Sequence record: LC788706.1
Direction: 5' to 3' (one strand)
DNA length: 64,000 nucleotides
Origin: Escherichia coli phage KS_S14
Part shown: positions 30,409 to 62,182 of the stretch, one piece after another
Numbering within the stretch: position 1 is the first letter of the stretch
Layout of the letters: each line of letters begins with the position of its first letter
Notes under the pieces: model-generated
Told to the model about the DNA's origin: nothing
Database searches by the model: none
Seen by the model: only the letters and a program-made list of their open reading frames with translations
Made by a program: the position numbers and the translations under genes

Positions 30409-30490
30409 TCTCCTTTGCACGCTTTCGTGCCTTCTAAATGCAAAAAGGGGAAGGAGCATAGCCCCCTCCCCTTAGGTTTAATTTACCAGA

Positions 30491-31258
30491 TTATTCAGCA
30501 GCCGCAGCTTTTGCATCCAGTTTAGCACGCTTAGCGGCACCATCATAGTCCTTAGCAACCAGACCACGACGAGACAACATAGATTTAACACCACGCTCAG
30601 ACTTACCAGTTTTCTCAGCGATCTCAGCAACGGTCATGTTAACCAGATCCAGACCTTCTAGCAGATCTTCACGAGTTTTAGCACTTGAAGTTTCCTGTAC
30701 CGGCATAGCAGCGATACGACCTTCACGAAGCAGGCTCAGAGCTTTACCACGGATCTGCTTGATATTACGACCGAAGTGAGCAGCGATAGCTTCAATAGTA
30801 GCTCCAGCAACAACCTGATTAACAAAATCGGTTTCTTCATCAGGAGTGAAGGAACGAACAGCAGCAGCTTTTTCAGTTGGTTTAACAGAGGCGGTCATTT
30901 CCAGACTCAGGATCTTACCCTGTACCTGCTTAGCACCAAATTGACCACCAACTACAGCAGCAGCGATTTCAGCATAAGTATACTGACCAGCATGAGCGTT
31001 CAGGAAATCAACCAGTTCAGCTTCCTGCTCAGGAGTCCATGGGGATTTCTGTACTTCGTTAGCTTTCTGTACTTCAAAACCTTCTTTACGCAGTTTAGAG
31101 CCAACAGAGCGAGCAGTAACATCTTTGCCAGTTTCAGCAGCCAGTTCAGCAGCAATAGCAGCTACTTGTTCTTGAGAGATTACAGAAACACCCAGAGCGG
31201 TGGCTTTTGCTTTCAGAGACTCGGTTACACCTTCTACGTTCCAGTTCAGTTTAGACAT
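30491..31258 (-). CDS. putative DNA-binding protein (D5 position)
   Basis: 255-aa Ala/Lys-rich ORF with repeated helix-rich segments; synteny only. Confidence 0.45.
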   Translation of the reverse strand: MSKLNWNVEGVTESLKAKATALGVSVISQEQVAAIAAELAAETGKDVTARSVGSKLRKEGFEVQKANEVQKSPWTPEQEAELVDFLNAHAGQYTYAEIAAAVVGGQFGAKQVQGKILSLEMTASVKPTEKAAAVRSFTPDEETDFVNQVVAGATIEAIAAHFGRNIKQIRGKALSLLREGRIAAMPVQETSSAKTREDLLEGLDLVNMTVAEIAEKTGKSERGVKSMLSRRGLVAKDYDGAAKRAKLDAKAAAAE

Positions 31259-32024
31259 TATTATTTTTCTCCAATAGTTCTTTAATCGACAGGATTTCTA
31301 TCCCATTCGTTTCGGCTTTCTTATAAGATGAGGAAGAACGCTTCGATTCATCCTCACAGATTAGGTATTTGACGTCTTTGGTAACGGATTTCTTAACCGT
31401 GTATCCTAGACCTTCTAAATAGTTTGTTGCATCCGTTCGGTTTGCAAAGTCTTGCAAAGATCCGGTAATACATACCGCGATTCCATTTGGCTGGGCAACT
31501 AAATCATCAGTAACGACGGTTTTAGCTTTAGCACCAGTTGAGAATTTCCACGGTAATTCGATAACATCCTTGCCTTGTGGGGAATTTAGCCAGGCTTTAT
31601 AGTTTTCTCCAGCCTTGCCGTCAGCCTTCACATCGTGAAAGCCAGTGCAATTTTGGGATAATTTCTTTGCTGCAACCTCTCCAATTAGAGGGATTCCTAA
31701 AGAACCGAGAACTGAACCAAAGTCAATGTCTCCGCGAACTTTAGTATTTAATTCGCTAATTAACTTAGCGGCAACCTTGCTACCCACGGCTCTAACCAAA
31801 TCTTCTTCGGTTAGGTAAAATAGTTCTGAAATCTTCGTCAGCTCCAGCTTCTCAATAGTTTTCGGGCCAAAGCCCTTTAACTTCATTTTTGTACAGAAGT
31901 TCTCAATTAACTTACTTGATTGCGCTGGACAGTTGGACTTATTCCGACAGAATAATTGTCCGTTGACAAGATCTAGCTTAGAACCACAAGAGGGACATTG
32001 TGTTGGAATTTCGATTTTCATCAA
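31251..32024 (-). CDS. NAD-dependent DNA ligase, C-terminal part (Zn-finger, HhH, BRCT-like)
   Basis: 257 aa; CPSCGSKL...C..C zinc-finger-like start, GFGPKT HhH-like motif. Confidence 0.75.
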   Translation of the reverse strand: MMKIEIPTQCPSCGSKLDLVNGQLFCRNKSNCPAQSSKLIENFCTKMKLKGFGPKTIEKLELTKISELFYLTEEDLVRAVGSKVAAKLISELNTKVRGDIDFGSVLGSLGIPLIGEVAAKKLSQNCTGFHDVKADGKAGENYKAWLNSPQGKDVIELPWKFSTGAKAKTVVTDDLVAQPNGIAVCITGSLQDFANRTDATNYLEGLGYTVKKSVTKDVKYLICEDESKRSSSSYKKAETNGIEILSIKELLEKNNNV

Positions 32025-32044
32025 ATTTCTTCCTTATCAATTTA

Positions 32045-32090
32045 TATAAATATTATAGCAAGTATTTAAGCATTTAGCAACTACAATTTT
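32045..32090 (-). promoter_or_regulatory. T5-type promoter (minus strand) upstream of ligase C-terminal gene
   Basis: attata 32052-57, tagcaa 32075-80, 17-bp spacer. Confidence 0.55.
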
Positions 32091-32139
32091 AACTAACTTT
32101 GCTTACCCTCGCCATAACTTTCTATCCCTCAACTGAATG

Positions 32140-32185
32140 ATAATAGTATATACCTAAGCGGCGAAAATGTCAATAACCACTTTAT
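32140..32185 (-). promoter_or_regulatory. sigma70 consensus-like promoter (TTGACA type) on minus strand in ligase spacer
   Basis: Minus strand reads TTGACATTTTCGCCGCTTAGGTATATACT (TTGACA, 17 bp, TATACT). Confidence 0.4.
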
Positions 32186-32223
32186 AATTCCGATATGGTA
32201 GATGGGTAGCAAAGGGTTATGTA

Positions 32224-33195
32224 TTAATCATATACTCGCTCTACTATGCACGGGATTACACCACCAGCACGAATCACTCGAATCTGGCAACCGATCTCTA
32301 GATCAAGAGAGTTAATATAATCAACGTTATTAAGAGTCGCTTTAACAATTGTAGCATCATCAATAATTACCGGTTCGAAATAACCAACTGGAGTTACTTT
32401 ACCAGAGGCCCCTACCTGCCACTCAACTTTAGTAAGAGTAGTAATCTCACCTTCTTCATCCTCTTTAATAGCGAATGCTCCACGAGGGAATTTATTAGTC
32501 CAGCCTTCTCGGAAGAATTTGTTGTTGTCATTAATACGAACAACTTTACCATCCGTTGGAATCCACTTAAAGAAGGAACGCACATTAACAACTGTTAAGA
32601 AATCTTCATTCTCTAGCCAAAGCATATCTTTTAAATACGTTTCTGTAATACCTACAGATTCAGCAGAACACTGGATACCATATGCAACGAAGATTAAACC
32701 ACCTTCCCCTATACGTTGTACGAAATCATCGCTATCTTTGAGGTTAATAGCACCAGAGGCAAAGTTACGTTTATTTTCTACTTCTTTTGTAATTAGAACT
32801 TCACCAGTGATTTGAGTAGGTACTTTTTGGGAAATCTTTTGAGGGATGTTCAGCAATCTTACGTTGCTTGTGACATCATTCCCTAGAATACCATTACCAC
32901 GAGTTAGTGCTTGAACAAATTCGCCATTAATATATAACAGAGAAATCGCACAACCATCTAACTTATCAGTTTCTACCTGACCTAATGGGTTAAACGGAGG
33001 TTTATCTCCACGATTATAATAAACTTTCTGTAAAGAATACATACGATACAGATGTGGAATATCGCCCTTAGGCCCGATCTCTTCTTCTAACGGAAATCTT
33101 TTAATCAGACGATCATATTCTTCGTCAGAGATTAAAGACATTCCCTGGTAATATGCTTCTTGGCAACGTTTAATAAAGTCTTTTACATTAGTCAT
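32224..33195 (-). CDS. NAD-dependent DNA ligase, N-terminal part (adenylation + OB domains)
   Basis: 323 aa; N-terminal Ia-like region and KLDG adenylation motif. Confidence 0.8.
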   Translation of the reverse strand: MTNVKDFIKRCQEAYYQGMSLISDEEYDRLIKRFPLEEEIGPKGDIPHLYRMYSLQKVYYNRGDKPPFNPLGQVETDKLDGCAISLLYINGEFVQALTRGNGILGNDVTSNVRLLNIPQKISQKVPTQITGEVLITKEVENKRNFASGAINLKDSDDFVQRIGEGGLIFVAYGIQCSAESVGITETYLKDMLWLENEDFLTVVNVRSFFKWIPTDGKVVRINDNNKFFREGWTNKFPRGAFAIKEDEEGEITTLTKVEWQVGASGKVTPVGYFEPVIIDDATIVKATLNNVDYINSLDLEIGCQIRVIRAGGVIPCIVERVYD

Positions 33196-33219
33196 TTATT
33201 TGTATCTCTCATTAATTTA

Positions 33220-33262
33220 TATAAATATTATATAACAAAACTGAGTTGAAAGCAAATACATT
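33220..33262 (-). promoter_or_regulatory. T5-type promoter (minus strand) upstream of ligase N-terminal gene
   Basis: attata 33227-32, aagcaa 33250-55, 17-bp spacer. Confidence 0.55.
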
Positions 33263-33282
33263 TATAAAGAAAAAGCCAAGAA

Positions 33283-33591
33283 CTAGGCATTCTTGGCTTT
33301 GAGTTCTTCAGCTCGTTTCTGTACTTCATGTAAAACCTCAGATTCGCTAAGAATCTGTGTAAACGCATAGAAAAGCTGCGATGTTGTTTCTAGGGTGTAA
33401 GGAAAAGAGAAGCCAGATTTCGTTGGAAACCATTCATCATTAATATCAAGAAGCCAGTAACGAATACCCATGTATAGATTCCCACGAAATTCAGATACTG
33501 TTAATCTTACTTGTTCTCCCTCCTTCTCCCAGAGTATGATGGACTGGTCATCAACGTGTCCTTCATAGTTTTGATTTACCTGTTCGCTCAT
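33283..33591 (-). CDS. hypothetical protein
   Basis: 102-aa ORF. Confidence 0.4.
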   Translation of the reverse strand: MSEQVNQNYEGHVDDQSIILWEKEGEQVRLTVSEFRGNLYMGIRYWLLDINDEWFPTKSGFSFPYTLETTSQLFYAFTQILSESEVLHEVQKRAEELKAKNA

Positions 33592-33607
33592 TTACATATC
33601 CCAAATA

Positions 33608-33632
33608 CACAAAAAGCCCCATATAGGGGCTA
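33608..33632 (-). terminator. rho-independent terminator (minus strand)
   Basis: GCCCC-ATAT-AGGGGC; minus strand followed by TTTTTGTG. Confidence 0.6.
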
Positions 33633-33641
33633 ATTGGTTTC

Positions 33642-33938
33642 TTATCGGCCTACTGGAGAAGCACGATCTAACTCTGATTGGAGGCTAGTCACACGACGGA
33701 CTTTCTCGACAGGAATAAAACGGAAGCTATCATTAGTACGAGAGAAGACAAGGATCTCATCATCTTTCGCTTTACGAATACGTTCACGTTTAATACGCTC
33801 AGCCAGATATTTATCTTGGGCTGGATCAAATTCCATCGTACCCTGAAGGTACGTGGTTCCTTTCTGACGAAGTTTCTCGTAATGAAGATAAAACTCACCA
33901 AATTTTTCACATTGTGCGATAATTTCAGCTTTGGTCAT
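33642..33938 (-). CDS. hypothetical protein
   Basis: 98-aa ORF followed by hairpin terminator. Confidence 0.4.
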   Translation of the reverse strand: MTKAEIIAQCEKFGEFYLHYEKLRQKGTTYLQGTMEFDPAQDKYLAERIKRERIRKAKDDEILVFSRTNDSFRFIPVEKVRRVTSLQSELDRASPVGR

Positions 33939-33974
33939 AACTGTGTTCCTTTTGTTGGTGGATTTATCTAAAAA

Positions 33975-34385
33975 TTACTTAGTGATAGCTCGGATTGCTT
34001 CTGCCAGATGAGCAGCCGCTTTACCAGTCAGTTTGTCGATAATTGCATCATCCAGAAAATCTGGTGCTAAGCCAGCATCAGAGAATGCTGAACGAAGATC
34101 GGCATGAGCTTGGGCTTTGGAAGTACGAGAACCACCAGAAGCTTTTTCTCCAGTAGATGCGCTAGATTTAGAAGCAGAGCCAGCAGCTTTCTTGATATAC
34201 ACACCTGCTTTAGTTAGCTTCATACGAAAACCGTTCGGAGTTACACCATTTTCCTGGGCAATTTCGCTAACAATTTCCATGCTAACACCCGGACGTTCAT
34301 CCTCTGGGAATTGCTCCATACGAGCAACGTATTCGGAAGACATTTTTTCGAACAGTTCATCAGTCCACTGAGTTGGAGTAGTCAT
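33975..34385 (-). CDS. hypothetical protein
   Basis: 136-aa ORF with T5-type promoter upstream. Confidence 0.4.
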   Translation of the reverse strand: MTTPTQWTDELFEKMSSEYVARMEQFPEDERPGVSMEIVSEIAQENGVTPNGFRMKLTKAGVYIKKAAGSASKSSASTGEKASGGSRTSKAQAHADLRSAFSDAGLAPDFLDDAIIDKLTGKAAAHLAEAIRAITK

Positions 34386-34434
34386 ATTTTATATTTCCTT
34401 AATTAATAATTAAACAGAATAGTTCTTTCAAACT

Positions 34435-34480
34435 ATGAGAATATTATATCAAGAATTATAGGATTAAGCAACTGAAATTT
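34435..34480 (-). promoter_or_regulatory. T5-type promoter (minus strand)
   Basis: attata 34443-48, aagcaa 34466-71, 17-bp spacer. Confidence 0.55.
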
Positions 34481-34491
34481 TTCTGTAATTG

Positions 34492-34779
34492 CTACACATC
34501 TAGCTCAACGATCTCCCAATCATCCGCCAGAGCTTCTTCTAGGGTTAGGGAGGAGGTTTTCCATGTTGCGTCTTTTATATCGAACTTGGTATACCCATCT
34601 TCATTGGGCCACCAGGTAAACTCGACAATATCATTATTATCAACATCTACTTTTATAATGGTAGAGTAATAAGTACGAGCGTCCCAATTACCCCAGCTAT
34701 CCCGCTGGAGATATTTTACATCTCCATCTTTAAGCAAATCTGTTAGCTTACTCACGGCGTTTTCCTTTTTCTTTATCAA
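34492..34779 (-). CDS. hypothetical protein
   Basis: 95-aa ORF. Confidence 0.4.
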   Translation of the reverse strand: MIKKKENAVSKLTDLLKDGDVKYLQRDSWGNWDARTYYSTIIKVDVDNNDIVEFTWWPNEDGYTKFDIKDATWKTSSLTLEEALADDWEIVELDV

Positions 34780-35452
34780 GCTTCAGGGCGGCCTTAACAG
34801 CTTCGTTAATCAACGTAATAATTTCTTCACGAGTCCACTTGTACCCTAGAGATTTTACGTCAACCCCTAACTTTTCTAGATGCTTAACAGAGGCCAACTC
34901 GTAATTCATATAATGGACGTTCTGTTGTTTGCCTTCCGATAGAAGCCATACACGGTAACAACCAACAGGATTATCCATTGCTTTTTTGATTTCACCGATA
35001 CACTGGTATCCAGGAACCCAAACAAGCTCACCAACTGCAAATTCTTCTGCTACAGCATCATCAGGAATAATTGGAGGATTCAATGGATCTACAATATCGT
35101 TCAAACGAAGTAGAGCACCATATCGTTCCAGAACAGATTTAACCATTGCTACAGAGCGGTAATTACGATCGGCAATTTCTTCAAAAGAATCACCAGATAA
35201 ATACTGCTCAATAACGTTAGCTAACTCAATGCCTTCAATGAGTGTGCCACGTTTCTTTTTCTTCATTTCGGCAACTTGAATCTGGCGGTCTTGCCATTCT
35301 TCAATCATTCTTTCCATAGTTGGATTAGATGATACGCCGAGCATTTCACATGCTGCTTTCTTAGTACCACCGTTCTCCAGATGCTCTATAACCTTTTTAA
35401 AGACTTCATCCGGGATTTCATGGATATGTTTCTTTCTACGAGAACCAGCCAT
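34748..35452 (-). CDS. putative HTH DNA-binding protein
   Basis: 234 aa; HTH-like segment GGTKKAACEMLGVSSNPTMERMIEEW. Confidence 0.45.
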   Translation of the reverse strand: MAGSRRKKHIHEIPDEVFKKVIEHLENGGTKKAACEMLGVSSNPTMERMIEEWQDRQIQVAEMKKKKRGTLIEGIELANVIEQYLSGDSFEEIADRNYRSVAMVKSVLERYGALLRLNDIVDPLNPPIIPDDAVAEEFAVGELVWVPGYQCIGEIKKAMDNPVGCYRVWLLSEGKQQNVHYMNYELASVKHLEKLGVDVKSLGYKWTREEIITLINEAVKAALKLDKEKGKRRE

Positions 35453-35474
35453 ATTTAAACTCCTCTCTCAAATT

Positions 35475-35520
35475 TATGAATCTATTATACAGAAATTTTT
35501 TGCACTATGCAAATAAATTT
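35475..35520 (-). promoter_or_regulatory. T5-type promoter (minus strand) upstream of HTH protein gene
   Basis: attata 35482-87, atgcaa 35505-10 (= TTGCAT), 17-bp spacer. Confidence 0.55.
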
Positions 35521-35763
35521 TTACGATTCCTTGAGCAAAGAAGCAAGTTCAGCATAGACTTTATCTAATTCAAAGCCGATGCGAAGAGACACGTTTGTTT
35601 TCCGTTGTTTAAGTAACCACTCGGATATGTTAGGGATGCCAGCTAATCTATGCGGTACCACCCTACATAGCTTTTCCGAAGTGTCGTAAACAGGAACTTT
35701 ACGTTCTTTTACTGGAAACTTCCTTGTTTCCCATTTTTTATTCTTCACTGTCATTTCTAGCAC
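35521..35763 (-). CDS. hypothetical protein
   Basis: 80-aa basic ORF. Confidence 0.4.
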   Translation of the reverse strand: MLEMTVKNKKWETRKFPVKERKVPVYDTSEKLCRVVPHRLAGIPNISEWLLKQRKTNVSLRIGFELDKVYAELASLLKES

Positions 35764-38605
35764 CTAGCTCTGCCATTGCTTCATCATGCATATGTTTCTC
35801 CTCATCAGTCATAAACTTATACGGGATTGGCATACACTCGATTTTACAATAGGTTCTGTACCAGTCTACAATATTCTCCGTGTTCATATCCTTACCAATA
35901 CCCATCATACCAAGATACATTCTAGCATATTTTGGGTTAGCACTCTGACCTGTTTTAAGGAAGAAATCTTTCTTCTTACCTTTCAGAGCTTCTATAAATG
36001 GTTTGATAGTGACATTTGAACACTTCTTAATATCTTCCCAGAACATCTCGTGCATTTTATGGAAAAATGCCGCTCGATCATTCGGTTTATCCTTAATATA
36101 TTGTTCAACATGCTCAACTGTTACATCTTTAATAGACTCAAGATGATAATAGCGAACAAGAAGTAGTTTAGCTTCATACGCATCAGCATGGCGTGGAGCA
36201 CAATAATCAGGGGTTGAATATAAAATAGCTTTGATTCGCTCTTCCGTATATTCCTTCCCAGCACCTTCGATAGTTCCCCAGCTTTCACTGAAAATATCAA
36301 TAGTTGCACCCTGATCAAGCAAGTAATAACGTAAAGTACTAGTATAGTTCCTAGATTCCAGCTCTCTACGACGTGCGTATAATTGCTGTGCTAACTCCAG
36401 CCAACCTTCATCAATGTTATATTGCTCAGAACCTGCGGAGAATCCACTCGTAGATTTATCAATAAAATAATAAATGTTCTGAGCGCCACGGTCGCGCCTG
36501 ATTGCTTGAAAACGCATGTTTGGCGCTTGGTTGCTGGTTCTAGTAATAACGAATACGTTATCAAAATAGTTGAAGTCAACACCACTAGTTACGGAGGGAC
36601 TACATAATAAGCAATCAATTTGTTGATCAATTAGCTCATTAGTTGTGTAATCCAGAATACGTCGAATATCTACATCAGACGTAGAGTTTGAGTGGATTTC
36701 CTTAACTAACGCACCCGTATTACGACGCAGCGCCATACCCTTCTCATTCAGTTCATCCGGGCCACAATCAGATACCAGAATAGATTTCTCCCCCATTTCT
36801 AGAGAAGTCTGAAGTGCAACCCAAATACTGGATTCATCAGGGAACTCATAAGCATGAGCTTTTGACAGCATTTTACGGTGATGATTATAAAATGCAACCG
36901 GTTTATCAAACTCAATTAAAGAACCATATGCTTCAATTGTTTCTGCACTAATATCCCCATCAGATAATATAATAATTTTTGCAGTTGCAAGAATGTCACG
37001 TAGAACTTGAATACATTCGCGACGTTGTTTAACAACCGGGGCGAATAATAGGTCATTCATTACAGCATCACATTCATCGATAAAGATTGCATCAATTTGA
37101 CCAATAAAACTCTTGAACTTATGCAAAGAGTGAATAGTTGTGGACATACGGTCAATAGCACCACGCTTAAAATTAAGCATATCTACAGACTTATCATATT
37201 GTCCTGCACTAAATTTCTTAGCATTTGAAGATACCAGTGCTCGAGTATTGGTAATTGCTAAGAAATTACCTTTAATAACTCCTGAATCTAACCAACGCAC
37301 AACCGCCGTAGTTTTACCTGTACCTAGACTTGCTTTTACAAAAGTCATATAACCTTCTGGTGGTACAGTATTTAATTTCAAGAAGTTATCAGTTTCTAGA
37401 GAATTAGTTTCTAGCTTTTTAAGTGGAATACCTTTTAAAACATCAGGTATATCGCGTTTAGAATTATTAACAAACGCTTTCAGAGCCTGTTTACGGCCGT
37501 TATTAAAGTAATCTTGAATATTACGACTATTATCTTTAGTTGCAATATATTCTGATAAGGCTGGACGGATTTCTTTTTCTAGCCATGCAAAATCAACACC
37601 ATCCTCCAAAGCTCTATGATAGAGTTTAGGTATAATACGTAGATACACCCCATCCTCAGCTTCTTCTAGTTCGCTGATAGTTTCCTCTACTTTATCAGAG
37701 GCAGCTTTTTTACCTTTAATTTGATCGAGTAAAGAGTAAAACTCCTCCTTAAACTCACCTCTAGTTGTTTCATAGTCAACCAGATTATTGGGTAAATTTA
37801 CTTTAGAACCCTTAACAAATACCAGACGTGAAGCACCCTCCGCTTTAAACGGATCTACTATACCATCGGTAAATAACGGATCTGCAAAATAATGGAGCTG
37901 TACGGAAGAGTAATACGCTAAGTCGGCAATATCAAAGCCATACTTTTGTCTACTACTTTCGTTGATAGATGTAAATAAGAATTTGATTTGACCCTGAGTT
38001 ACTTTAACATTAGATTCTAGTATTAAGTGCATTCGGATACCTGGTTTTAGCCCAGACGAAGACGATGCATGAGCGATAAACCCTGCATCAAGAGGAAACA
38101 TATCCTCACTAATACTATTTAACATTCTAATAATATGTCGAGCCATGCCAACAAGATCAAACTTGTTACAACCACCTGTATCTACAATACCATCCACGTC
38201 CATTGCAATTATATGACTTGGGTTAGATACATTAAAGTTGCCCTTCTTACGTCGCACATTATTTTTAGGTGCAAGACATCGACCTCGTACCGCAACGATA
38301 TGAGGGTCAGACGTTAAACGTCTCATAAGAGGGAGCATTTCTACTAGGGTTTGAGGATCAACTTCATCAATTACATCAAACTTGAAGGGCATTGAAGCTG
38401 GTTTACCTTCAGGATGCTTTGAGGAAAATCTTTTAGCAAAAAGATAGTCTTCTGCTTTAACTTCTCGCCAATTGCCTGTGGCTAAATCGCGATGAAATCC
38501 TGCATGACCTTGTAGGATTGAGAACACAACGATACTCCTGTGTTGGAAATGAAATAAGTTTTCTTTAGGACTATTCAGAAAGAATAGAACAACTGTTACT
38601 GTCAA
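35738..38605 (-). CDS. large P-loop ATPase, putative origin-binding / helicase-like replication protein
   Basis: Walker A SLGTGKTT, Walker B-like FIDECD; start uncertain (ORF track start is TTG at 38605; an internal ATG near 38400 is possible). Confidence 0.6.
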   Translation of the reverse strand: MTVTVVLFFLNSPKENLFHFQHRSIVVFSILQGHAGFHRDLATGNWREVKAEDYLFAKRFSSKHPEGKPASMPFKFDVIDEVDPQTLVEMLPLMRRLTSDPHIVAVRGRCLAPKNNVRRKKGNFNVSNPSHIIAMDVDGIVDTGGCNKFDLVGMARHIIRMLNSISEDMFPLDAGFIAHASSSSGLKPGIRMHLILESNVKVTQGQIKFLFTSINESSRQKYGFDIADLAYYSSVQLHYFADPLFTDGIVDPFKAEGASRLVFVKGSKVNLPNNLVDYETTRGEFKEEFYSLLDQIKGKKAASDKVEETISELEEAEDGVYLRIIPKLYHRALEDGVDFAWLEKEIRPALSEYIATKDNSRNIQDYFNNGRKQALKAFVNNSKRDIPDVLKGIPLKKLETNSLETDNFLKLNTVPPEGYMTFVKASLGTGKTTAVVRWLDSGVIKGNFLAITNTRALVSSNAKKFSAGQYDKSVDMLNFKRGAIDRMSTTIHSLHKFKSFIGQIDAIFIDECDAVMNDLLFAPVVKQRRECIQVLRDILATAKIIILSDGDISAETIEAYGSLIEFDKPVAFYNHHRKMLSKAHAYEFPDESSIWVALQTSLEMGEKSILVSDCGPDELNEKGMALRRNTGALVKEIHSNSTSDVDIRRILDYTTNELIDQQIDCLLCSPSVTSGVDFNYFDNVFVITRTSNQAPNMRFQAIRRDRGAQNIYYFIDKSTSGFSAGSEQYNIDEGWLELAQQLYARRRELESRNYTSTLRYYLLDQGATIDIFSESWGTIEGAGKEYTEERIKAILYSTPDYCAPRHADAYEAKLLLVRYYHLESIKDVTVEHVEQYIKDKPNDRAAFFHKMHEMFWEDIKKCSNVTIKPFIEALKGKKKDFFLKTGQSANPKYARMYLGMMGIGKDMNTENIVDWYRTYCKIECMPIPYKFMTDEEKHMHDEAMAELGARNDSEE

Positions 38606-39019
38606 TTTCTCAACAAATTAATTGCAAATACTGAAGTGGGGTGGCAACTTCCACTTTCACGCTACACTGCCGCTTCACTATACCGCACAAATCCTTGAGG
38701 ATGGCCGCTAAGCCAGATTTGCTCACCTAATGCTTCATGTACTAGCTCATACTAGATGTAGTATACCTTACGTCATCACTTCTCAGAGTTTTTCACTCTT
38801 CCCGTCTCACTTCACAACCACCTCACACTAGGTTGCTTCGAGGCCTTACCAGGGTTCCTACGGGATGTAGATCGCTAAGTATTCTATTAATTATTTGTTT
38901 AAAAACTAACACGTAACAGTTAAAACAACCCTTAATGGGGCAGCCTAACTGTTCCGTATCGCGGATTGTAAACAAGAAAAATTAGCAAAATCAATTTTTA
39001 CTAATGTCTCTCAATTCAA

Positions 39020-39720: not shown

Positions 39721-40149
39721 TTAGGCGGTTAAACCCGGAATTTGATAACCAAAACGACGAAGTTTTTGGATACCATCATTTACTTCTTCTGGTGAGTAAG
39801 ACCAACCATACCGTTCATTAACTTGAAAACCAGGAGATTCGTTGGTTTTATAGTTAACAACAATACGGTGTTTATTAGGCATAAACAGCCTATAGTTTAA
39901 CGCAAAAACCAAGCCCATTTCATCCAACTCTTTCCAGCCAACAATCTCTTCAAGACCCTCCTCTACCTGCACAATTAAACCAATACAGGGAGCTTCTTCA
40001 ATCTCGCCTTTAAAAGCAAAGGAGATTTCATTATTCTCACACCATATTTTCAGAGCATTAATAGCCTCATTGTACAGGTTGGCTGGAAGAGTACGCCAAA
40101 AATTAACCAATATCGGGTTAGCCTCTTTAGAGAATACATTATTGAACAT
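39721..40149 (-). CDS. hypothetical protein, paralogue of adjacent 130-aa ORF
   Basis: See paralogue; tandem duplication. Confidence 0.5.
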   Translation of the reverse strand: MFNNVFSKEANPILVNFWRTLPANLYNEAINALKIWCENNEISFAFKGEIEEAPCIGLIVQVEEGLEEIVGWKELDEMGLVFALNYRLFMPNKHRIVVNYKTNESPGFQVNERYGWSYSPEEVNDGIQKLRRFGYQIPGLTA

Positions 40150-40151
40150 AT

Positions 40152-40658
40152 TTACACCTTAAATTGTTGTAGGGCTTTACACATTTCAAGATCTGGGCTA
40201 AATTCTAACATATAGCTAACAGCTCTTAAATCTTGAAGATTTATTCCAGTTCTACCATTGACTATAACCGTTGGATACTGATACATCATAGCACCAGCAT
40301 CATCCAGCACACACCAATGTTTGAGCCTATGCTTTTCAACGAAGCGAAGAACAGAATTACCCCTAGATAATCCACCACCAGTAAAATCCGTTGTACCAAG
40401 AAAACGATCAATAAGATCTAATCCGGTCATAATCTGAACGTTCTCCATCTCATTCCTGACAGAGAACCATGAAGATACTCCAACAATCATTATTGGGGAA
40501 GGACGAATAAAGTCCTGAAAAGCCTTGAGAAGCGGTTTAAAAACCCAGTCACTTCCAAAGAAAATCTTTTCATCATCAGGTGCATGGTGATGGGAGATGC
40601 TCGAGTTGAGCACCCCATCAATATCTAGAAAAATAATTGGAGTATTACTTATTTCCAT
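40152..40658 (-). CDS. HAD-superfamily phosphatase-like protein
   Basis: N-terminal IIFLDIDGVLN (DxDG motif I) and later VLDDAG. Confidence 0.5.
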   Translation of the reverse strand: MEISNTPIIFLDIDGVLNSSISHHHAPDDEKIFFGSDWVFKPLLKAFQDFIRPSPIMIVGVSSWFSVRNEMENVQIMTGLDLIDRFLGTTDFTGGGLSRGNSVLRFVEKHRLKHWCVLDDAGAMMYQYPTVIVNGRTGINLQDLRAVSYMLEFSPDLEMCKALQQFKV

Positions 40659-40827
40659 TTTTGTCCCTTTCTAAGAACGTATCATACTCAACCGTATCAA
40701 CATATATGACACCATAGTCATCGGATTTATAGTCCATTTCCCATAGCTCACACCGATAGCACCAACTACCATCCGCCCATACAAATATATCATCTGGATG
40801 TGTATACACAGATTTAACTATGGACAT
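40645..40827 (-). CDS. hypothetical small protein
   Basis: 60-aa ORF overlapping both neighbours. Confidence 0.3.
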   Translation of the reverse strand: MSIVKSVYTHPDDIFVWADGSWCYRCELWEMDYKSDDYGVIYVDTVEYDTFLERDKNGNK

Positions 40828-56287: not shown

Positions 56288-56605
56288 ATGACTTTTCATA
56301 TTTTGATTGATGATGTGCGTAATCTTCACGGAATGGACATTATCATTCGAACCCCAGAAGCCGCTGTAGAGTTTCTGAATAAAACTGATACTACAGGCCA
56401 TTTCGTTTATATGGATAATGACTTGGCTGTAGATGGTATGGAAGGTTATCAAATTCTTCGTTTACTCTTAGAATTTGGGCAGAGACCAAAGAAAGTGGTA
56501 CTAGTAACCTCGAACCCAGTAGCTAAGCAAAATATGCGTAATGATTTGCTTGACTTAGGGTATAAAGAAAATCCCAATCGTGTTGAGTATGATTGGCAGG
56601 AGTAA
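56288..56605 (+). CDS. hypothetical protein
   Basis: 105-aa ORF after T5-type promoter. Confidence 0.4.
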   Translation: MTFHILIDDVRNLHGMDIIIRTPEAAVEFLNKTDTTGHFVYMDNDLAVDGMEGYQILRLLLEFGQRPKKVVLVTSNPVAKQNMRNDLLDLGYKENPNRVEYDWQE

Positions 56606-56610
56606 AAAGA

Positions 56611-57060
56611 ATGAAGGCAGCTTTGCTTTTAGTAGCTGCCCTTACCTTCAGCTTTAGTAGTCAGGCATCGCACGATGCAAAAGAAATAGATTGCATTGCT
56701 AAAAATATCTATTTCGAGAGTCGTGGTGAGGGCATAAAGGGAATGACGGCGATTGCACATGTTACTAAAAACCGTGTAAACTCTGGTAAATTCCCAGATT
56801 CCTACTGTAAAGTAGTATATCAGTCTAACCAGTTCTCTTGGGTATCTAAGAGACCAAAAGTTGATAAAACCGATGAGGCTTGGCAAACTGCTAAGAATTT
56901 AGCTAGAGTGATATACTACGTTGATTTACCACAAGATCCTACACATGGAGCACTATACTTCCATAGTGGTAAAGATAAACCTTACTGGACAAAGAAATTT
57001 AAGAAAACAACTAAGATTAAGGGACATACGTTTTATAAACCTGTTGTCACTAAAACTTAA
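56611..57060 (+). CDS. SleB/CwlJ-type cell wall hydrolase with N-terminal signal peptide
   Basis: MKAALLLVAALTFSFSSQA signal-like N-terminus; IYFESRGEG...AIAHVTKNRV...DPTHGALYFH...GHTFY match Hydrolase_2 pattern. Confidence 0.6.
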   Translation: MKAALLLVAALTFSFSSQASHDAKEIDCIAKNIYFESRGEGIKGMTAIAHVTKNRVNSGKFPDSYCKVVYQSNQFSWVSKRPKVDKTDEAWQTAKNLARVIYYVDLPQDPTHGALYFHSGKDKPYWTKKFKKTTKIKGHTFYKPVVTKT

Positions 57061-57128: not shown

Positions 57129-57299
57129 ATGAAATCAGTTGTAATTATTGGTGTTAACACTCGCGGTATTCGTACTACGAAAACTGTTAAAACATCTAAC
57201 GTGGCTGAAATTACTACTAACCCTAAAAAGTTTGATTTCGCCAAAGTCTCAGCAGTTATGACAGAACAATCTTTTAACCAAGCGTTAGGAATGAAATAA
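57129..57299 (+). CDS. hypothetical small protein
   Basis: 56-aa ORF below ORF-track cutoff, RBS gagagga. Confidence 0.3.
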   Translation: MKSVVIIGVNTRGIRTTKTVKTSNVAEITTNPKKFDFAKVSAVMTEQSFNQALGMK

Positions 57300-57742
57300 T
57301 GGAAGAGAATATTTTAGATGTTTTGCGTAGAGCTTTGCAGGATTCTAAGTTTAATGGTTCTGATAAAGAAGTCGCTAAAAGCTATCAGACCATAATCGGG
57401 GATCTTCAGCGTATTAATAAAGATTTCATCACTTCTGAACAATTTGTGTCTTATCTCAAAGCTCAACTAAAAAGCATTAACCAGATGAAAGCTAAACTTC
57501 ATGGTCAAGATCTTGATAGTTATAGCTTGCAGTCCGCTCAGTATGAATACATTCTAAATAAGTGGTTGCAGGAGTATCTGCCTCCTCAGTTATCTGATAC
57601 TGAGATTCGTAAATACTTTGCAGAATTAGTTAAGCTAAACCCTGGAATTACAAAAGGTATGCTAATGAAAGCGATTAAGGAAGAATTTCCTGGGCGTTAT
57701 GATGGTGGTACTGCTGCTCAGATTGCTGGCGAATTTAATTAA
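57299..57742 (+). CDS. GatB/YqeY-domain protein
   Basis: 147 aa; C-terminal KGMLMKAIKEEFPGRYDGGTAAQIAGEF typical of YqeY family. Confidence 0.55.
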   Translation: MEENILDVLRRALQDSKFNGSDKEVAKSYQTIIGDLQRINKDFITSEQFVSYLKAQLKSINQMKAKLHGQDLDSYSLQSAQYEYILNKWLQEYLPPQLSDTEIRKYFAELVKLNPGITKGMLMKAIKEEFPGRYDGGTAAQIAGEFN

Positions 57743-57785
57743 AAATTTATTTGCTAAATGCTTATAAATTCTGTATAATATATTC
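57740..57785 (+). promoter_or_regulatory. T5-type early promoter driving tRNA/structured-RNA region
   Basis: AAAAATTTATTTGCTA with TTGCTA (57751-56), 17 bp, TATAAT (57774-79). Confidence 0.65.
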
Positions 57786-58017
57786 ATAAATTAGAGAACA
57801 GCGAGCCGATTACGCTGAACTTGTCTTAATGTAAGATGCGTCAAGCACTAAGATTCGTTGAATAGAGTCGGTGGGTTAGTTGTAAAACTAGTACACAGGG
57901 GGCGGCAATCCCGGTTAGTGGCTAGAACGTGTAAAATGAGGCGTCTGAAACCTCTCCCCTAAACTCTTCTCTAATTTATAAATAGTGGGGTGTGGAAATC
58001 ACTTATGTAGTAACACT

Positions 58018-58089
58018 GCCGTCCTAGTATAATTGGTATTATCAAGCCGTAACTGGTGGAAGATGTAGGTTCGAATCCTACGGTCGGTA
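58018..58089 (+). tRNA. tRNA-like element, possibly degenerate tRNA
   Basis: Perfect T-arm GTAGG-TTCGAAT-CCTAC and acceptor pairing with one U-U mismatch, but no convincing anticodon stem and no encoded CCA. Confidence 0.3.
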
Positions 58090-58591
58090 AGAACTGGATA
58101 ACTGATGCTTTTAACGTAAAAGCTTCCGAGGTTAGTTGCGCACTGCCTAAACCACGCGGTAGTTGGTTCCAGACTAACCAACCAGTCTGCTGAATAGTTT
58201 TATTACGATTTAACTATGTCCAGGCTAAAGAAGAACTTTAGAAGGTATTCTAGGATAGTGAAGTTCTTTCTCCATATCGGAGTAGTTTTTCAAGCTATCC
58301 ACAAAGTGGGAAATGCTGACATGAGAGATGTCACTAATGGTGCACAATAGCACAGGTAATTCGCGATAACTCCTGTTGAGTAGCAGCAAAAGGCGGGAAG
58401 TCATGACCCCAAGCCTAACCGAGTCCTCAATATACCGCAGGACATAACCACTAAGTCACCCTGACTTAAACTGGAAAATAATAGACGTTACTGTATTTTG
58501 TCTTGAAATACTTAATGAGCGAGACTTATGACTCTCCCGGTATCGTCTGTATTTTTAAGAGCTTTTATAAGAGTTCTTAAAAATGCCTAAA

Positions 58592-58666
58592 CGGGGTGTA
58601 GTCTAAGGGAGAGGCAGGAGTCTTCTAAATTCCTTTATGCAGGTTCGAATCCTGTCACCTCGGCCA
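58592..58666 (+). tRNA. tRNA-Arg (anticodon TCT)
   Basis: Hand fold: acceptor CGGGGTG/CACCTCG, anticodon stem GGAGT/ATTCC, loop CTTCTAA, T-arm GCAGG-TTCGAAT-CCTGT, encoded CCA. Confidence 0.6.
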
Positions 58667-58700
58667 ATTTTATTAACTGTAACTAAAACAAAGGAAACAT

Positions 58701-59648
58701 ATGTTTAATACTAAAAATATGAAAGAACTGACTTCTGAGCAGAAAGTAATTCGTACTATTAAACGTTGGGGTATTGGTGCTGTAGTTGGTTTAGCAGGCT
58801 TGATTCTAGCTTTTAATTCATATACTATTGTTTCTGATGGTACGGTTAAAACCCAAACATTCCTGGGTAAAGTAGATCCTAATCCAGTATTGCCTGGTTT
58901 CCACCTTGTAAACCCGTTTGCATCTTTCGATACTTTTAGTACAAAAGATATTGCTGTAAAATTATATAAACTTCAGGTTCCTAGCCAGGATAAGTTTAAA
59001 TCCACTGTTGACCTGACTGTTATGTTGCAGTTTGATGGTTCTAAGGCACCGATTAACCGTATTAACGCAGGTACTCAGGATCAGGCACTAGACAAGTATG
59101 TAACTGAAAAATTACTGTCTACTATTCGTGAGTTTGGTAAGTCTGTACCTAAAGCACAAGATTTATTTGATGCTAAAATTCAGGCTCAATTGCAAACTGC
59201 AATTCAACAGGAAGTTGAAGAGTATGCACGCCCATATGGTTACACAGTTAAGCAGGTGTTCCTTCAGGATATTACTTTGCCACCGGTAATCATGGAACAG
59301 GTACAGAATACCAAAGTTCGTGAAGAACAGGTTAATGCTGCGAAAGCTGAACTGGCTCGCGTTGAACAAGAAGCTCAGCAGAAAGTCAAACAAGCAGAAG
59401 CAGACCGTGAAGCTCGCAACAACCAAGCTATTGCCAATGAACGTGATGCAGATGCTAAACTGTACGCAGCTAAGAAAGAAGCTGAAGCTAACGCCGCATT
59501 GCAACGTACCATTACTCCTGAGATGATTCGCTGGAAGCAACTGGAAGTTGAAATGATTCGTGCTCAGAAATACCAAGGTGGTGTACCGCAGACTGTGGTT
59601 GGCACTGGCTACGATGGTCAAATGATTATGGATATGCGTAATAAATAA
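58701..59648 (+). CDS. SPFH / band-7 (prohibitin-like) membrane protein
   Basis: 315 aa; N-terminal TM helix (GIGAVVGLAGLILAF), SPFH-like core, Ala/Glu/Gln-rich coiled-coil. Confidence 0.65.
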   Translation: MFNTKNMKELTSEQKVIRTIKRWGIGAVVGLAGLILAFNSYTIVSDGTVKTQTFLGKVDPNPVLPGFHLVNPFASFDTFSTKDIAVKLYKLQVPSQDKFKSTVDLTVMLQFDGSKAPINRINAGTQDQALDKYVTEKLLSTIREFGKSVPKAQDLFDAKIQAQLQTAIQQEVEEYARPYGYTVKQVFLQDITLPPVIMEQVQNTKVREEQVNAAKAELARVEQEAQQKVKQAEADREARNNQAIANERDADAKLYAAKKEAEANAALQRTITPEMIRWKQLEVEMIRAQKYQGGVPQTVVGTGYDGQMIMDMRNK

Positions 59649-59672: not shown

Positions 59673-59708
59673 AGCCCTGCGTTTCCTGGAGAGCGCAGGG
59701 CTTTTCTG
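59673..59708 (+). terminator. rho-independent terminator after SPFH gene
   Basis: AGCCCTGCG...CGCAGGGCT then TTTTCTG. Confidence 0.7.
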
Positions 59709-59724
59709 TACTTAAGATAAAAGA

Positions 59725-59755
59725 AAAGCCCCTAAGTCTTTCGACTAGGGGCTTT
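59725..59755 (-). terminator. terminator for convergent minus-strand Q-rich gene
   Basis: GCCCCTA(A)GTC...GACTAGGGGC; minus strand followed by TTTTCTTTT. Confidence 0.6.
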
Positions 59756-59972
59756 ATTGTTTGGTTCTTCAGAACCATATACTCTTATTACAGCAACCAC
59801 CCATACGGGAGGCCAATCTTGACTGAAAATCTACTCTAGGGGGCAGGATAAGAGTAGGCTTAAAGGCAAACGGATTGAACGCCGGTATTTGCGTAAACAT
59901 TGCTGGAGAGCAACAACGTGCTACAGGCATTGGGCAGCACGAAACAGATTTTCTGCAACACATAATTCCTCC

Positions 59973-60389
59973 TTAGGAGTTATTACCACTATTTTGAGCT
60001 TTTGCAACCTGGCTTTGGCAGAAGCTATTAAACTTACCCATAAGTGATACAAGCTGTTTACCATCCTCTGTCTTTGCGAAGTCTTCGAAAAGGGCTAGTA
60101 CTGCCTGTCCTTCCGCAGAAACCTGCGGTTGTTGGGTTTGCTGCTGAGCTTGCTGCTGCGGCACCTGTTGCTGCATTTGTTGAGGCATTTGCGACTGCCC
60201 GCTCATTTGCTGCATCATTTGCATAGGACTCACACTTCCAGGGTTTTGCTGGAGTTGTTGCTGCATCTGTTGCGCTTCTGCTAAACGCTGTTGCAATTGT
60301 TGTAAGTAGGGGTTATCCAGACCAGGAATGGGCTGCTGGGAGCCCATACTTTGATTAAGTCCGTTATTTACAAAACCATATTTACTCAT
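59973..60389 (-). CDS. Gln-rich low-complexity protein
   Basis: 138 aa, central Q/M/P-rich tract. Confidence 0.5.
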   Translation of the reverse strand: MSKYGFVNNGLNQSMGSQQPIPGLDNPYLQQLQQRLAEAQQMQQQLQQNPGSVSPMQMMQQMSGQSQMPQQMQQQVPQQQAQQQTQQPQVSAEGQAVLALFEDFAKTEDGKQLVSLMGKFNSFCQSQVAKAQNSGNNS

Positions 60390-60410
60390 AATGGGCTCCT
60401 CCCCTTAATA

Positions 60411-61398
60411 TTAAGCCGGCAGTTTAGCCTGCAGACCAGCCAGAGTCTGAGTGATAGCACCAAGACTTACAGCGATTTGATTAATTACCTGACCGTTAGC
60501 ACCGGTACCCGCAGCGATTGCTTCACGTAGGCGACATGCATCTAACTCATCCTGAATACGCGCAGTAGTTACACCAGCGATCGCAGTCTGAAGTTCACAG
60601 CAACATTCAGCGATCTGACGTTCCAGAGAGTTCTGGTTAGCACACATCTGAGCCTGAACAGCGACAAACTGGTTATTAGTTTGTAAAGTCTGCTGGAAAG
60701 CGATCTGTGCAGAATCAAACTTATCTTGTGCACGAGCTATCTGGTTAGCTGCGAAAGATTGATCGATCTGGCGAGAAAGATCGAACTGACCCTGAATAAC
60801 GTTGCGGGTTTCCTGGCAGATCTGATTAGACAGATTAGCACCTGTACCATAGATCGTAGTTAGTACAGACTGAGTATCACGGCTCTGGTTTTGGGATGTC
60901 TGGCTAAAACCATTGTTAACTGCGCTTAAAACAGCTCCAGTACCCTGGTTAGCTTCTGTACGAGTAGTGTTAATAGCTGCTAGAATACTAGCGGTATCTT
61001 GGTTCTGAAGTACTGCATCAACTGCGGTACCTTCACCAACTACACCACGTCCACCGAATCCACCGAAACCACCGAATCCGCCTGTTAATAGAGCACCGAT
61101 TAGGATAGCTCCGAATAGACCCATACCTTCCCCACCGAAAGCACCTGCGTTTGCTGGATAACCACCCAGTAGGCCAGGGAAGCCACTAGTGAATACGTTT
61201 ACTGGTTCTTGCATTTTATGTTTTCCATATTTATGACAATGCTCATCATCGTCATCTTCTTCATCATCGTGTTCACGATGTTTTTCTTCGTAGGCTCTGA
61301 CCTTCTCCCACTTTTTCTTATCTGATTCCTCGTGACGGTGCAGTTCTGCTGCAACGCTAGCGACGGTCTCAGGACTCTTAGCTACTTCTTCTGTCATT
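60411..61398 (-). CDS. glycine-zipper membrane protein with acidic/His-rich N-terminus and Gln/Asn/Thr-rich C-terminal region
   Basis: Start taken at MTEEVAK with RBS aggagg (ORF-track start 61457); GMGLFGAILIGALLTGGFGGFGGFGG segment. Confidence 0.5.
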
Positions 61399-61469
61399 TT
61401 TTGACACCTCCTAGTATATAGAAAATGTGTGTCTCTTTGATCACTCATCCATAACATATACTTTACACT

Positions 61470-61594: not shown

Positions 61595-61640
61595 AAAAAT
61601 TTGATTGCTTGAATGCTAAATTCTCTGTATAATATATCTA
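61595..61640 (+). promoter_or_regulatory. T5-type early promoter
   Basis: TTGCTT (61605-10), 17 bp, TATAAT (61628-33). Confidence 0.65.
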
Positions 61641-61663
61641 TAAATTTGAGAGAGGAACCAAAT

Positions 61664-62182
61664 ATGAATGTTGATGAACTAACAGAACATCTCTTATCTA
61701 GAGGGTTTGATACAGATAAATATCACTGCTGGCTAAGCCCAGAAGGATGGCTAACAGTCCCATTGTATGACTTCTCTGGGATGTTGAGAGGCTATCAGAC
61801 TTATAATCCTTCTGCTCCAAAAGGTCATGGTAAACGCCCCTTTGAAGCTAGATATTTTACTTATTCTACTACACAGTGTGTAGGGGGACTAGAAACTCTC
61901 AATGGAGACGAAAAAGTAGTATTGATTGCTGAATCTGTATTTAAGGCAGTTGCGTTACATAACGCTGGTTATCCAGCCCTGGCAATGTTGGGTTCTTCCC
62001 CTGGAAAAGCGTTGTTAAAGCAATTGAAATTACTACCTTTTAAATTGGTAGCTGTTGGGGATAATGATCCTGCTGGTGAAAAATTTGCTAGACAATTAAA
62101 TGGATTTGTTTCTCCTGTAGATGTGGATGAGATGTCTACCGAAAACTTGAAAAATTTTCTTGCTATGAAGCTAAATTTCTAA
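61664..62182 (+). CDS. Toprim-like small protein
   Basis: ATG 61664 with RBS gagagga; IAESVF (Glu) and VGDNDPAG (DxD) Toprim-like. Confidence 0.45.
   Translation: MNVDELTEHLLSRGFDTDKYHCWLSPEGWLTVPLYDFSGMLRGYQTYNPSAPKGHGKRPFEARYFTYSTTQCVGGLETLNGDEKVVLIAESVFKAVALHNAGYPALAMLGSSPGKALLKQLKLLPFKLVAVGDNDPAGEKFARQLNGFVSPVDVDEMSTENLKNFLAMKLNF

Follow-up and report, generated by a model that had tools for sequence, protein, structure and literature searches.

The 64,000-nucleotide stretch of Escherichia coli phage KS_S14 analysed here (record LC788706.1; hereafter the window) contains at 58701..59648, on the plus strand, a gene for a protein of the SPFH/Band-7 superfamily, comprising 315 codons plus stop. 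The open reading frame (ORF) begins with ATG and has exactly the coordinates given in an earlier note that a model had made on this DNA, and a ribosome-binding site, AAGGA, could be read from the upstream sequence at 58691-58695 (+), 5 nucleotides before the start codon. The encoded protein is 99% identical at the amino acid level to T5.080 (YP_006908.1) of Escherichia phage T5, and indeed T5.080 and its orthologues in Tequintavirus and Epseptimavirus (PHROG 200) occupy the same position and show only point differences, being the same gene. Over the surrounding 6.5 kb, Escherichia phage BUCT632, Salmonella phage oldekolle and others are 97% identical to the window, which belongs to a T5-like phage.

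The plus-strand reading frame can be divided into a series of parts. Codons 1-22 (58701..58766) encode an N-terminal tail rich in lysine and arginine (six K/R and two D/E), which is predicted to be cytoplasmic from its composition, from the charge bias of the whole family and from a calibration on E. coli paralogues. It is followed by a single hydrophobic transmembrane (TM) or signal-anchor segment at codons 23-41 (58767..58823), whose top 19-mer scores 1.79 on the Kyte-Doolittle scale. The Band_7 model of Pfam (PF01145) matches codons 52-225 (58854..59375) with E = 8.8e-17 and 62.2 bits, the gathering score being 23.6 bits, and this domain is likewise found by AlphaFold2 secondary structure and by Foldseek. 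Thereafter come a long helix of about 76 residues, the first coiled coil (CC1, codons 195-270, 59283..59510; predicted local distance difference test, pLDDT, about 78-91), and a second helix (CC2, codons 273-290, 59517..59570) with the conserved motif ITPEMIRWK at its start. The conserved C-terminal tail at codons 291-315 (59571..59645; Y.GGVPQTVVG...MDMR.K in the alignment) is a candidate cage-cap segment. Clearly, the phage encodes a full-length member of the SPFH/Band-7 superfamily with an N-terminal TM segment.

The AlphaFold2 monomer model, which was built on an alignment of 27 sequences and has a mean pLDDT of 79, consists of a helix at residues 12-38, an α/β core at 41-192, the two helices at 195-270 and 273-290, and short C-terminal strands. 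The N-terminal TM helix, the SPFH-like core and the long coiled coil that the earlier note had proposed are thus all borne out by the hydropathy profile, the Pfam match and the model. When compared with the PDB by Foldseek, the model gave a probability of 1.0 over some 270-305 columns to full-length erlin1/2, PHB1/2, HflK/C, stomatin, QmcA and flotillin, with E-values of 1.5e-14 for erlin1/2 and 4.6e-13 for PHB, while isolated stomatin SPFH domains reached TM-scores of 0.72-0.78 on the target. A plan of TM, SPFH1, SPFH2, CC1, CC2 and C-terminal segment has been described for SPFH proteins, together with the domed oligomers that they form (PMC12624060), and the phage protein has the same order of parts as the cage-forming members: a membrane anchor, SPFH1/2, CC1, CC2 and a C-terminal cap segment.

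The gene and its SPFH domain are already present in public annotation, and the finding as such is known. Orthologues are labelled 'SPFH domain / band 7 family protein' in several GenBank records, 'prohibitin family' or 'PHB domain' protein in some, and 'protease regulator' in one (H63). A comparison of T4-like phages from 2006 had reported a Band 7 domain in 44RR ORF098c, Aeh1 ORF064c and RB43 ORF139c (PMC1524935); the first two are listed in the T5 record as relatives of T5.080, and RB43 ORF139c is among the homologues recovered here (P0083). RefSeq and PHROG 200 give a different name, 'lipoprotein', which would make of it a lipid-anchored periplasmic or outer-membrane protein. The label comes with a PHROG_200 match of E = 1.1e-85 and with the RefSeq product name, and a cysteine does follow the hydrophobic segment in a few relatives ('IGSC' in P0115, 'LSCC' in the bacterial loci L040/L053). 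The phage protein itself has no cysteine and no lipobox, and lipidation at a lipobox is thus impossible; in the aligned family, 23 of the 27 members are devoid of any cysteine, which occurs in only the other four. We have accordingly rejected the lipoprotein label, to which we assign next to no probability, and the correction concerns a name that has by now spread through RefSeq.

The orientation of the protein in the membrane was assessed from the charges that flank the hydrophobic segment. Averaged over the 27 family members, the net charge is +3.6 before this segment and +0.9 in the 20 residues after it. The calibration made use of the E. coli paralogues of known orientation, whose N-terminal flanks contain two K/R residues each in HflK and HflC and none in QmcA and YqiK, as compared to four in the phage protein. 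YqiK faces the cytoplasm. HflK/C are periplasm-facing and QmcA is cytoplasm-facing (PMC12048511, PMC13086221). We thus infer that the N-terminus is inside and predict that the body lies in the periplasm, matching HflK/C; by its K/R-rich tail the phage protein groups with HflK/HflC, as opposed to QmcA/YqiK. In two distant bacterial relatives (L040/L053) the lipobox-like LSCC motif replaces the anchor, and in these export would also be implied.

A distinct scenario resulted from the comparison of sequences. A profile of the family searched against PDB sequences ranked QmcA first (3e-7), followed by PHB2 (9e-5), PHB1 (4.5e-4) and HflC (6e-3), the latter without a significant stretch, and HflK did not appear. 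In agreement, hhalign comparisons with the four E. coli K-12 paralogues gave 96% for QmcA over 202 columns, 70% for HflC over 32 columns, 11% for HflK and 5% for YqiK, and in a scan of NCBIfam no model matched the phage protein at E <= 1. Judged from its sequence, the phage protein belongs to the SPFH superfamily and is not in the HflK/C family. The best sequence relative among solved structures is E. coli QmcA (YbbK), which has the same plan of N-terminal TM segment, SPFH domain and coiled coil, a similar length (305 residues as compared to 315) and an identity of about 23%, and which is a stomatin-like protein that forms a 26-mer cage with the NfeD protein YbbJ (PDB 8Z5G). QmcA differs in that it has no charged N-terminal tail and faces the cytoplasm, whereas the prediction for the phage protein is a periplasmic body; moreover, QmcA has an NfeD operon partner, ybbJ, and the phage gene has none.

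E. coli HflK/HflC, in turn, constitute a periplasm-facing hetero-24-mer that encloses FtsH (PDB 7VHP, 7WI3, 9CZ2). They have in common with the phage protein the predicted N-in orientation, the order of domains, a Foldseek probability of 1.0 and a subunit number that is predicted from CC1 at about 24. They differ from it in the very weak sequence relation, in being encoded by a pair of genes rather than one, and in the long cytoplasmic N-terminus of HflK, which the phage protein lacks. No second SPFH gene that would make up an hflK-hflC-like pair was found nearby in the window or in the phage and bacterial loci examined. The designation 'HflK/C-type' in the earlier note is therefore retained for the predicted orientation only, and is not upheld by sequence, given the preference for QmcA, the absence of an NCBIfam match and the single gene. 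Prohibitins 1/2 and erlins 1/2 resemble the phage protein in the N-terminal TM helix, in a body that is non-cytosolic (a prediction in the phage case) and in the CC1-CC2-C-terminal cap, but are eukaryotic hetero-oligomers of two paralogues with 15-19% identity to it.

These comparisons bear on the proposal, raised in the earlier note together with an effect on membrane microdomains, that the protein acts as an FtsH modulator copying HflK/C, which would bind the periplasmic domain of host FtsH within the cage and either shield membrane proteins of phage or host from degradation or direct them towards it. The predicted orientation, facing the periplasm, would be that of HflK/C, the SPFH domain of HflK contacts FtsH in the periplasm, and prohibitins, which come next to QmcA among the solved relatives, are described in connection with FtsH-family proteases (PMC12048511). 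The 'protease regulator' label of record H63 points the same way but is unreferenced, and the hhalign preference for QmcA over HflK and HflC, the lack of an NCBIfam match and the single gene in place of a hetero-pair all argue against a copy of HflK/C. We therefore regard this modulator role as doubtful.

The setting of the gene was analysed on the plus strand from the nearest promoter onwards. A σ70-like promoter, TTGCTA-17-TATAAT, lies at 57751..57779, with 10 of 12 consensus matches and at the position of the T5 early promoter P16-17; the consensus scan found no other good plus-strand σ70-like site upstream of the SPFH ORF. It is followed at 57790..58591 by a non-coding stretch of about 0.8 kb which matches T5 RNAX as annotated in T5 (misc_RNA rnaX; the 5' end is approximate). 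Only short ORFs, none of them convincing, are found in it, and by coordinate offsets it is some 80 nucleotides longer in the window than in T5, where RNAX is a 719-nucleotide stable RNA. Within it, at 58018-58089 (+), there is a tRNA-like element which scores 35.5 bits with the Rfam tRNA model (gathering score 29 bits), was not called by ARAGORN, and is marked 'tRNA-OTHER' or 'tRNA-Pseudo' in some GenBank records. A tRNA-Arg(TCT) gene (58592..58666; ARAGORN, and 49.3 bits with Rfam tRNA) ends 34 nucleotides upstream of the SPFH start codon.

Downstream, a hairpin plus T-run at 59673..59707 (+), with a 9-bp stem formed by 59673-59681 and 59694-59702, appears from the sequence, and in its inner part from a scan, to be the intrinsic terminator of the SPFH gene. 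A second hairpin at 59720..59758 (stem 59728-59752), with an A-run on one side and a T-run on the other, would be a bidirectional terminator shared with the convergent T5.079-077 genes, and the T5 annotation at this place indeed reads 'efficient bidirectional rho-independent transcription terminator'. At 59692/59693, within the first hairpin (59673-59702), the window has the T5 nick consensus AGA|GCGC, which is conserved in T5, whose record gives a major single-chain interruption for the matching base; genomic nick site and transcription terminator thus overlap. The order in T5, namely early promoter P16-17, RNAX, tRNA-Arg, T5.080, major nick site and bidirectional terminator, is equal to the layout of the window. 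The expression from a tRNA-region transcript put forward in the earlier note fits both the sequence and the T5 annotation in so far as the gene has its place in the RNAX/tRNA-Arg unit, and the arrangement is consistent with co-transcription of the SPFH gene with RNAX and tRNA-Arg.

An early location of this kind does not favour a virion or morphogenesis protein, that is, a scaffold or decoration component built on an SPFH/vault-like fold, for which the presence of the major vault protein among the distant Foldseek matches might speak. The gene is part of the early tRNA region and follows a σ70 early promoter, its product has an N-terminal TM anchor, the class assigned to it in a genome-wide CRISPRi-ART knockdown screen of T5 is 'unknown/other' and not 'virion' (PMC11879866 supplement), and the viable phage BF23 is devoid of it. 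On the grounds of its early location, TM anchor and absence from BF23 we have rejected a virion role, which is highly improbable. The assignment in the earlier note stands, a Band_7 match having been found and a demonstrated virion role not.

The gene is under strong purifying selection and is a real gene: the ratio of nonsynonymous to synonymous substitution rates (dN/dS) is 0.014 with respect to T5 and 0.068 with respect to Salmonella phage S132, whereas it is undefined with respect to the T4-like copies, for which dS is saturated. Nevertheless, T5.080 is dispensable for growth of T5 on laboratory E. coli. In the CRISPRi-ART screen it was scored 'Not Fit' with seven guides (PMC11879866 supplement), and BF23, a viable classical relative of T5, does not have the band 7 gene (PMC12752171). 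In the synteny of BF23 the YqeY gene runs directly to hegA. At this locus (L067, 8363-8722) the deletion, which nuclease genes flank, takes out RNAX, tRNA-Arg, the SPFH gene and the four genes that follow. Phage NG_S8 (L066, 4962-5129) has kept only the last 42 SPFH codons, within a small annotated ORF. The known tRNA-region deletions of T5Mos (30661-38625) and T5-123 (29191-32442) end short of T5.080 (39791-40738) and are uninformative.

Taken together, the T5.080 orthologue of the window is probably an accessory, early-transcribed, single-pass inner-membrane SPFH protein, predicted to form a homo-oligomeric cage on the periplasmic face. The K/R-rich tail would stay in the cytoplasm and the body of about 275 residues would be exported to the periplasm, as in HflK/C, where roughly 24 copies would self-assemble as a homo-oligomeric dome on the inner membrane and thereby fence off a membrane patch plus the proteins sitting there. 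At the most speculative end of this scheme, FtsH, contacted at its periplasmic domain, would be the foremost single candidate as a client, and a tentative one; it is an obvious candidate because other outward-facing SPFH cages (HflK/C, prohibitins) associate with FtsH-family proteases. Equally speculative is that the benefit to the phage would be conditional, concerning host range, envelope stress, competition or defence, and not core replication.

A number of points weigh against this scheme. Oligomerisation, topology and localisation of the phage protein are predictions. The C-terminal strands and the cap region have low confidence in the monomer model (pLDDT 42-50). The published regression of subunit number on CC1 length (y = 0.1782x + 10.22; PMC12624060), when applied to the 76-residue CC1, gives 23.8 subunits, about 24, an estimate which extrapolates from a fit to other families. 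Some relatives have only 0-3 K/R residues in the N-terminal tail, and the positive-inside argument is weaker there. With respect to FtsH, the family is no nearer to HflK/C than to other SPFH proteins, the hhalign alignment with HflK spans 50 columns only, so that the contact of HflK Arg191 with FtsH cannot be mapped onto the phage protein, and the knockdown of T5.080 had no fitness effect in the laboratory. Finally, the literature that we found on phage SPFH proteins consists of mentions in genome annotations, and we found in it no experiment on T5.080 or any phage SPFH protein.

SPFH folds are annotated in many phages and giant viruses. The family under study is, on our reading of the profile-search counts, a small distinct clade: among 1.84 billion representative proteins there were 1961 matches at E <= 1e-3, of which 344 reach E <= 1e-10 and 85 reach E <= 1e-30. 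A member is carried by 727 phage records. Identity to the phage protein is 90-99% in T5-like phages, 74-78% in T4-like phages of Klebsiella, Cronobacter and Enterobacter, about 60% in Aeromonas T4-like phages and about 35% in an N4-like vibriophage. By a rough count, some 438 T5-like records have a copy with at least 80% identity, as compared to some 463 records matching the region. In the T4-like phages the gene is flanked by tk and rI, and in the vibriophage its neighbours are small uncharacterised genes. A search of 5,426 complete E. coli genomes gave no nucleotide match to the gene, and the phage would thus bring in an SPFH type which is absent from its host.

Chromosomal relatives of the same clade, length and plan exist in other bacteria, with 57-60% identity in Morganella/Providencia and 31-40% in Methylococcaceae, Methylophagaceae, other Gammaproteobacteria, Desulfocapsaceae and one Myxococcota genome. 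Unlike the phage copies, they are found outside prophages among ordinary genes (for example trpBA-accD-folC-SPFH), and they have no NfeD neighbour. The Morganellaceae copies (L006-L018, match at about 5001-5930) occur in many species in non-prophage contexts, and in a neighbour-joining tree, which is rough and has no support values, they nest inside a phage-dominated clade. The distribution suggests gene transfer between phages and Morganellaceae, in either direction.

The search for a partner gave a uniform picture. No NfeD or second SPFH gene was seen in the T4-like or N4-like phages examined, and clustering of the ORFs that flank 61 bacterial loci revealed no partner common across lineages and no NfeD in the loci examined. 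The sole cluster covering several lineages proved to be an artefact of a shared ABC ATPase domain (ABC-F, C39 exporter, oligopeptide ATPase) and was discarded. Synteny is lineage-specific, with folC upstream in Methylophagaceae and a Pyr_redox_2 gene downstream in Methylococcaceae, and does not extend to phages. In the Methylococcaceae loci L020, L021, L024-L027, L030 and L031 the downstream gene encodes a flavoprotein of 434-444 residues with a Pyr_redox_2 domain and follows directly, overlapping the SPFH stop codon in L020; SPFH and a respiratory-type dehydrogenase may form a lineage-specific operon in this family.

The behaviour of the gene among phages raises another possibility, that the cage serves counter-defence or competition, guarding the inner membrane from membrane-acting abortive-infection effectors or blocking, on the periplasmic side, the entry of superinfecting genomes. 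In BF23 a deletion of about 4 kb comprises T5 ORF071-075, including Rad (T5.076), an inhibitor of retrons, and its authors speak of the loss of an anti-defence locus (PMC10644984); the SPFH gene lies at the edge of this missing block. In the CRISPRi-ART screen T5.076 is itself classed as 'anti-defense, Known, Semi-Fit' (PMC11879866 supplement). Also, an accessory, early gene that moves between unrelated lytic phages and is not needed on a laboratory strain poor in defences has a profile typical of such functions, and the tk-rI region that contains the T4-like copies is variable. The link to Rad is however loose, as in many T5-like genomes the SPFH gene is retained next to a different downstream block; in S132 it is a NadR-like gene that comes after the SPFH terminator. 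A paper on tRNAs and retrons (PMC11555353) makes no mention of Rad or of the SPFH gene. A PADLOC scan gave no match at E <= 1, its models being of defence proteins and not of counter-defence, and the close chromosomal relatives in ordinary contexts point instead to a housekeeping-type membrane role. Counter-defence has no experimental support, and we consider it an unlikely function, about on a par with the role on FtsH. The T5.076 orthologue of the window, at 61613-62182 (+), is a Toprim-domain protein of 189 residues, named 'DNA primase' in RefSeq and known in the literature as Rad, the retron-defence inhibitor.

If the predicted periplasmic cage is placed in this wider distribution, one may speculate that T5-like, T4-like and N4-like lytic phages exchange a self-sufficient, single-gene SPFH cage as a conditional device for takeover or counter-defence, a view that we put forward as a long shot. 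Such a cage might capture FtsH or some other machine of the inner membrane, or else protect this membrane against pore-forming abortive-infection effectors or superinfecting phages. Were this true, a viral SPFH protein would for the first time have an assigned function, and a role on FtsH or in the protection of the membrane during infection would tie SPFH biology to the conflict between phage and host and explain the retention of the gene in about 700 phage genomes. SPFH cages have been structurally resolved only recently and their effect on clients is still debated; the phage protein offers a compact, single-gene and NfeD-free case, strongly selected yet losable, and thus a convenient handle. 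The function of this widespread and selectively maintained viral SPFH protein, with its predicted cage, would be easy to test in T5.

In the window, a domain scan of eight neighbouring ORFs returned cREC_REC, a cell-wall hydrolase, DUF7616, YqeY and Toprim domains, or none, and among these eight there was no NfeD, no protease and no second SPFH domain. Downstream, at 59769-61457 (-), the three convergent ORFs are orthologues of T5.079, T5.078 and T5.077 and have no Pfam match; all three T5 genes are scored 'Not Fit' in T5, and BF23 has none of them. The product of the ORF at 59973-60389 (-) is rich in glutamine, and that of the ORF at 60411-61457 (-) has an acidic, histidine-rich N-terminal part followed by a glycine-rich hydrophobic stretch. 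Upstream, the records disagree on the YqeY-domain protein encoded at 57299-57742 (+), which is given either as 'tRNA amidotransferase' or as 'recombination related exonuclease'. At 56593-57060 (+) there is a SleB-type cell-wall hydrolase (Pfam Hydrolase_2), named 'endolysin' in RefSeq. The orthologue of T5.084 at 56288-56605 (+), a 105-residue protein annotated as 'hypothetical', matches the Pfam cREC_REC model, a cyclic-phosphate processing receiver domain, with 56.8 bits; such a domain is notable beside a tRNA gene region.

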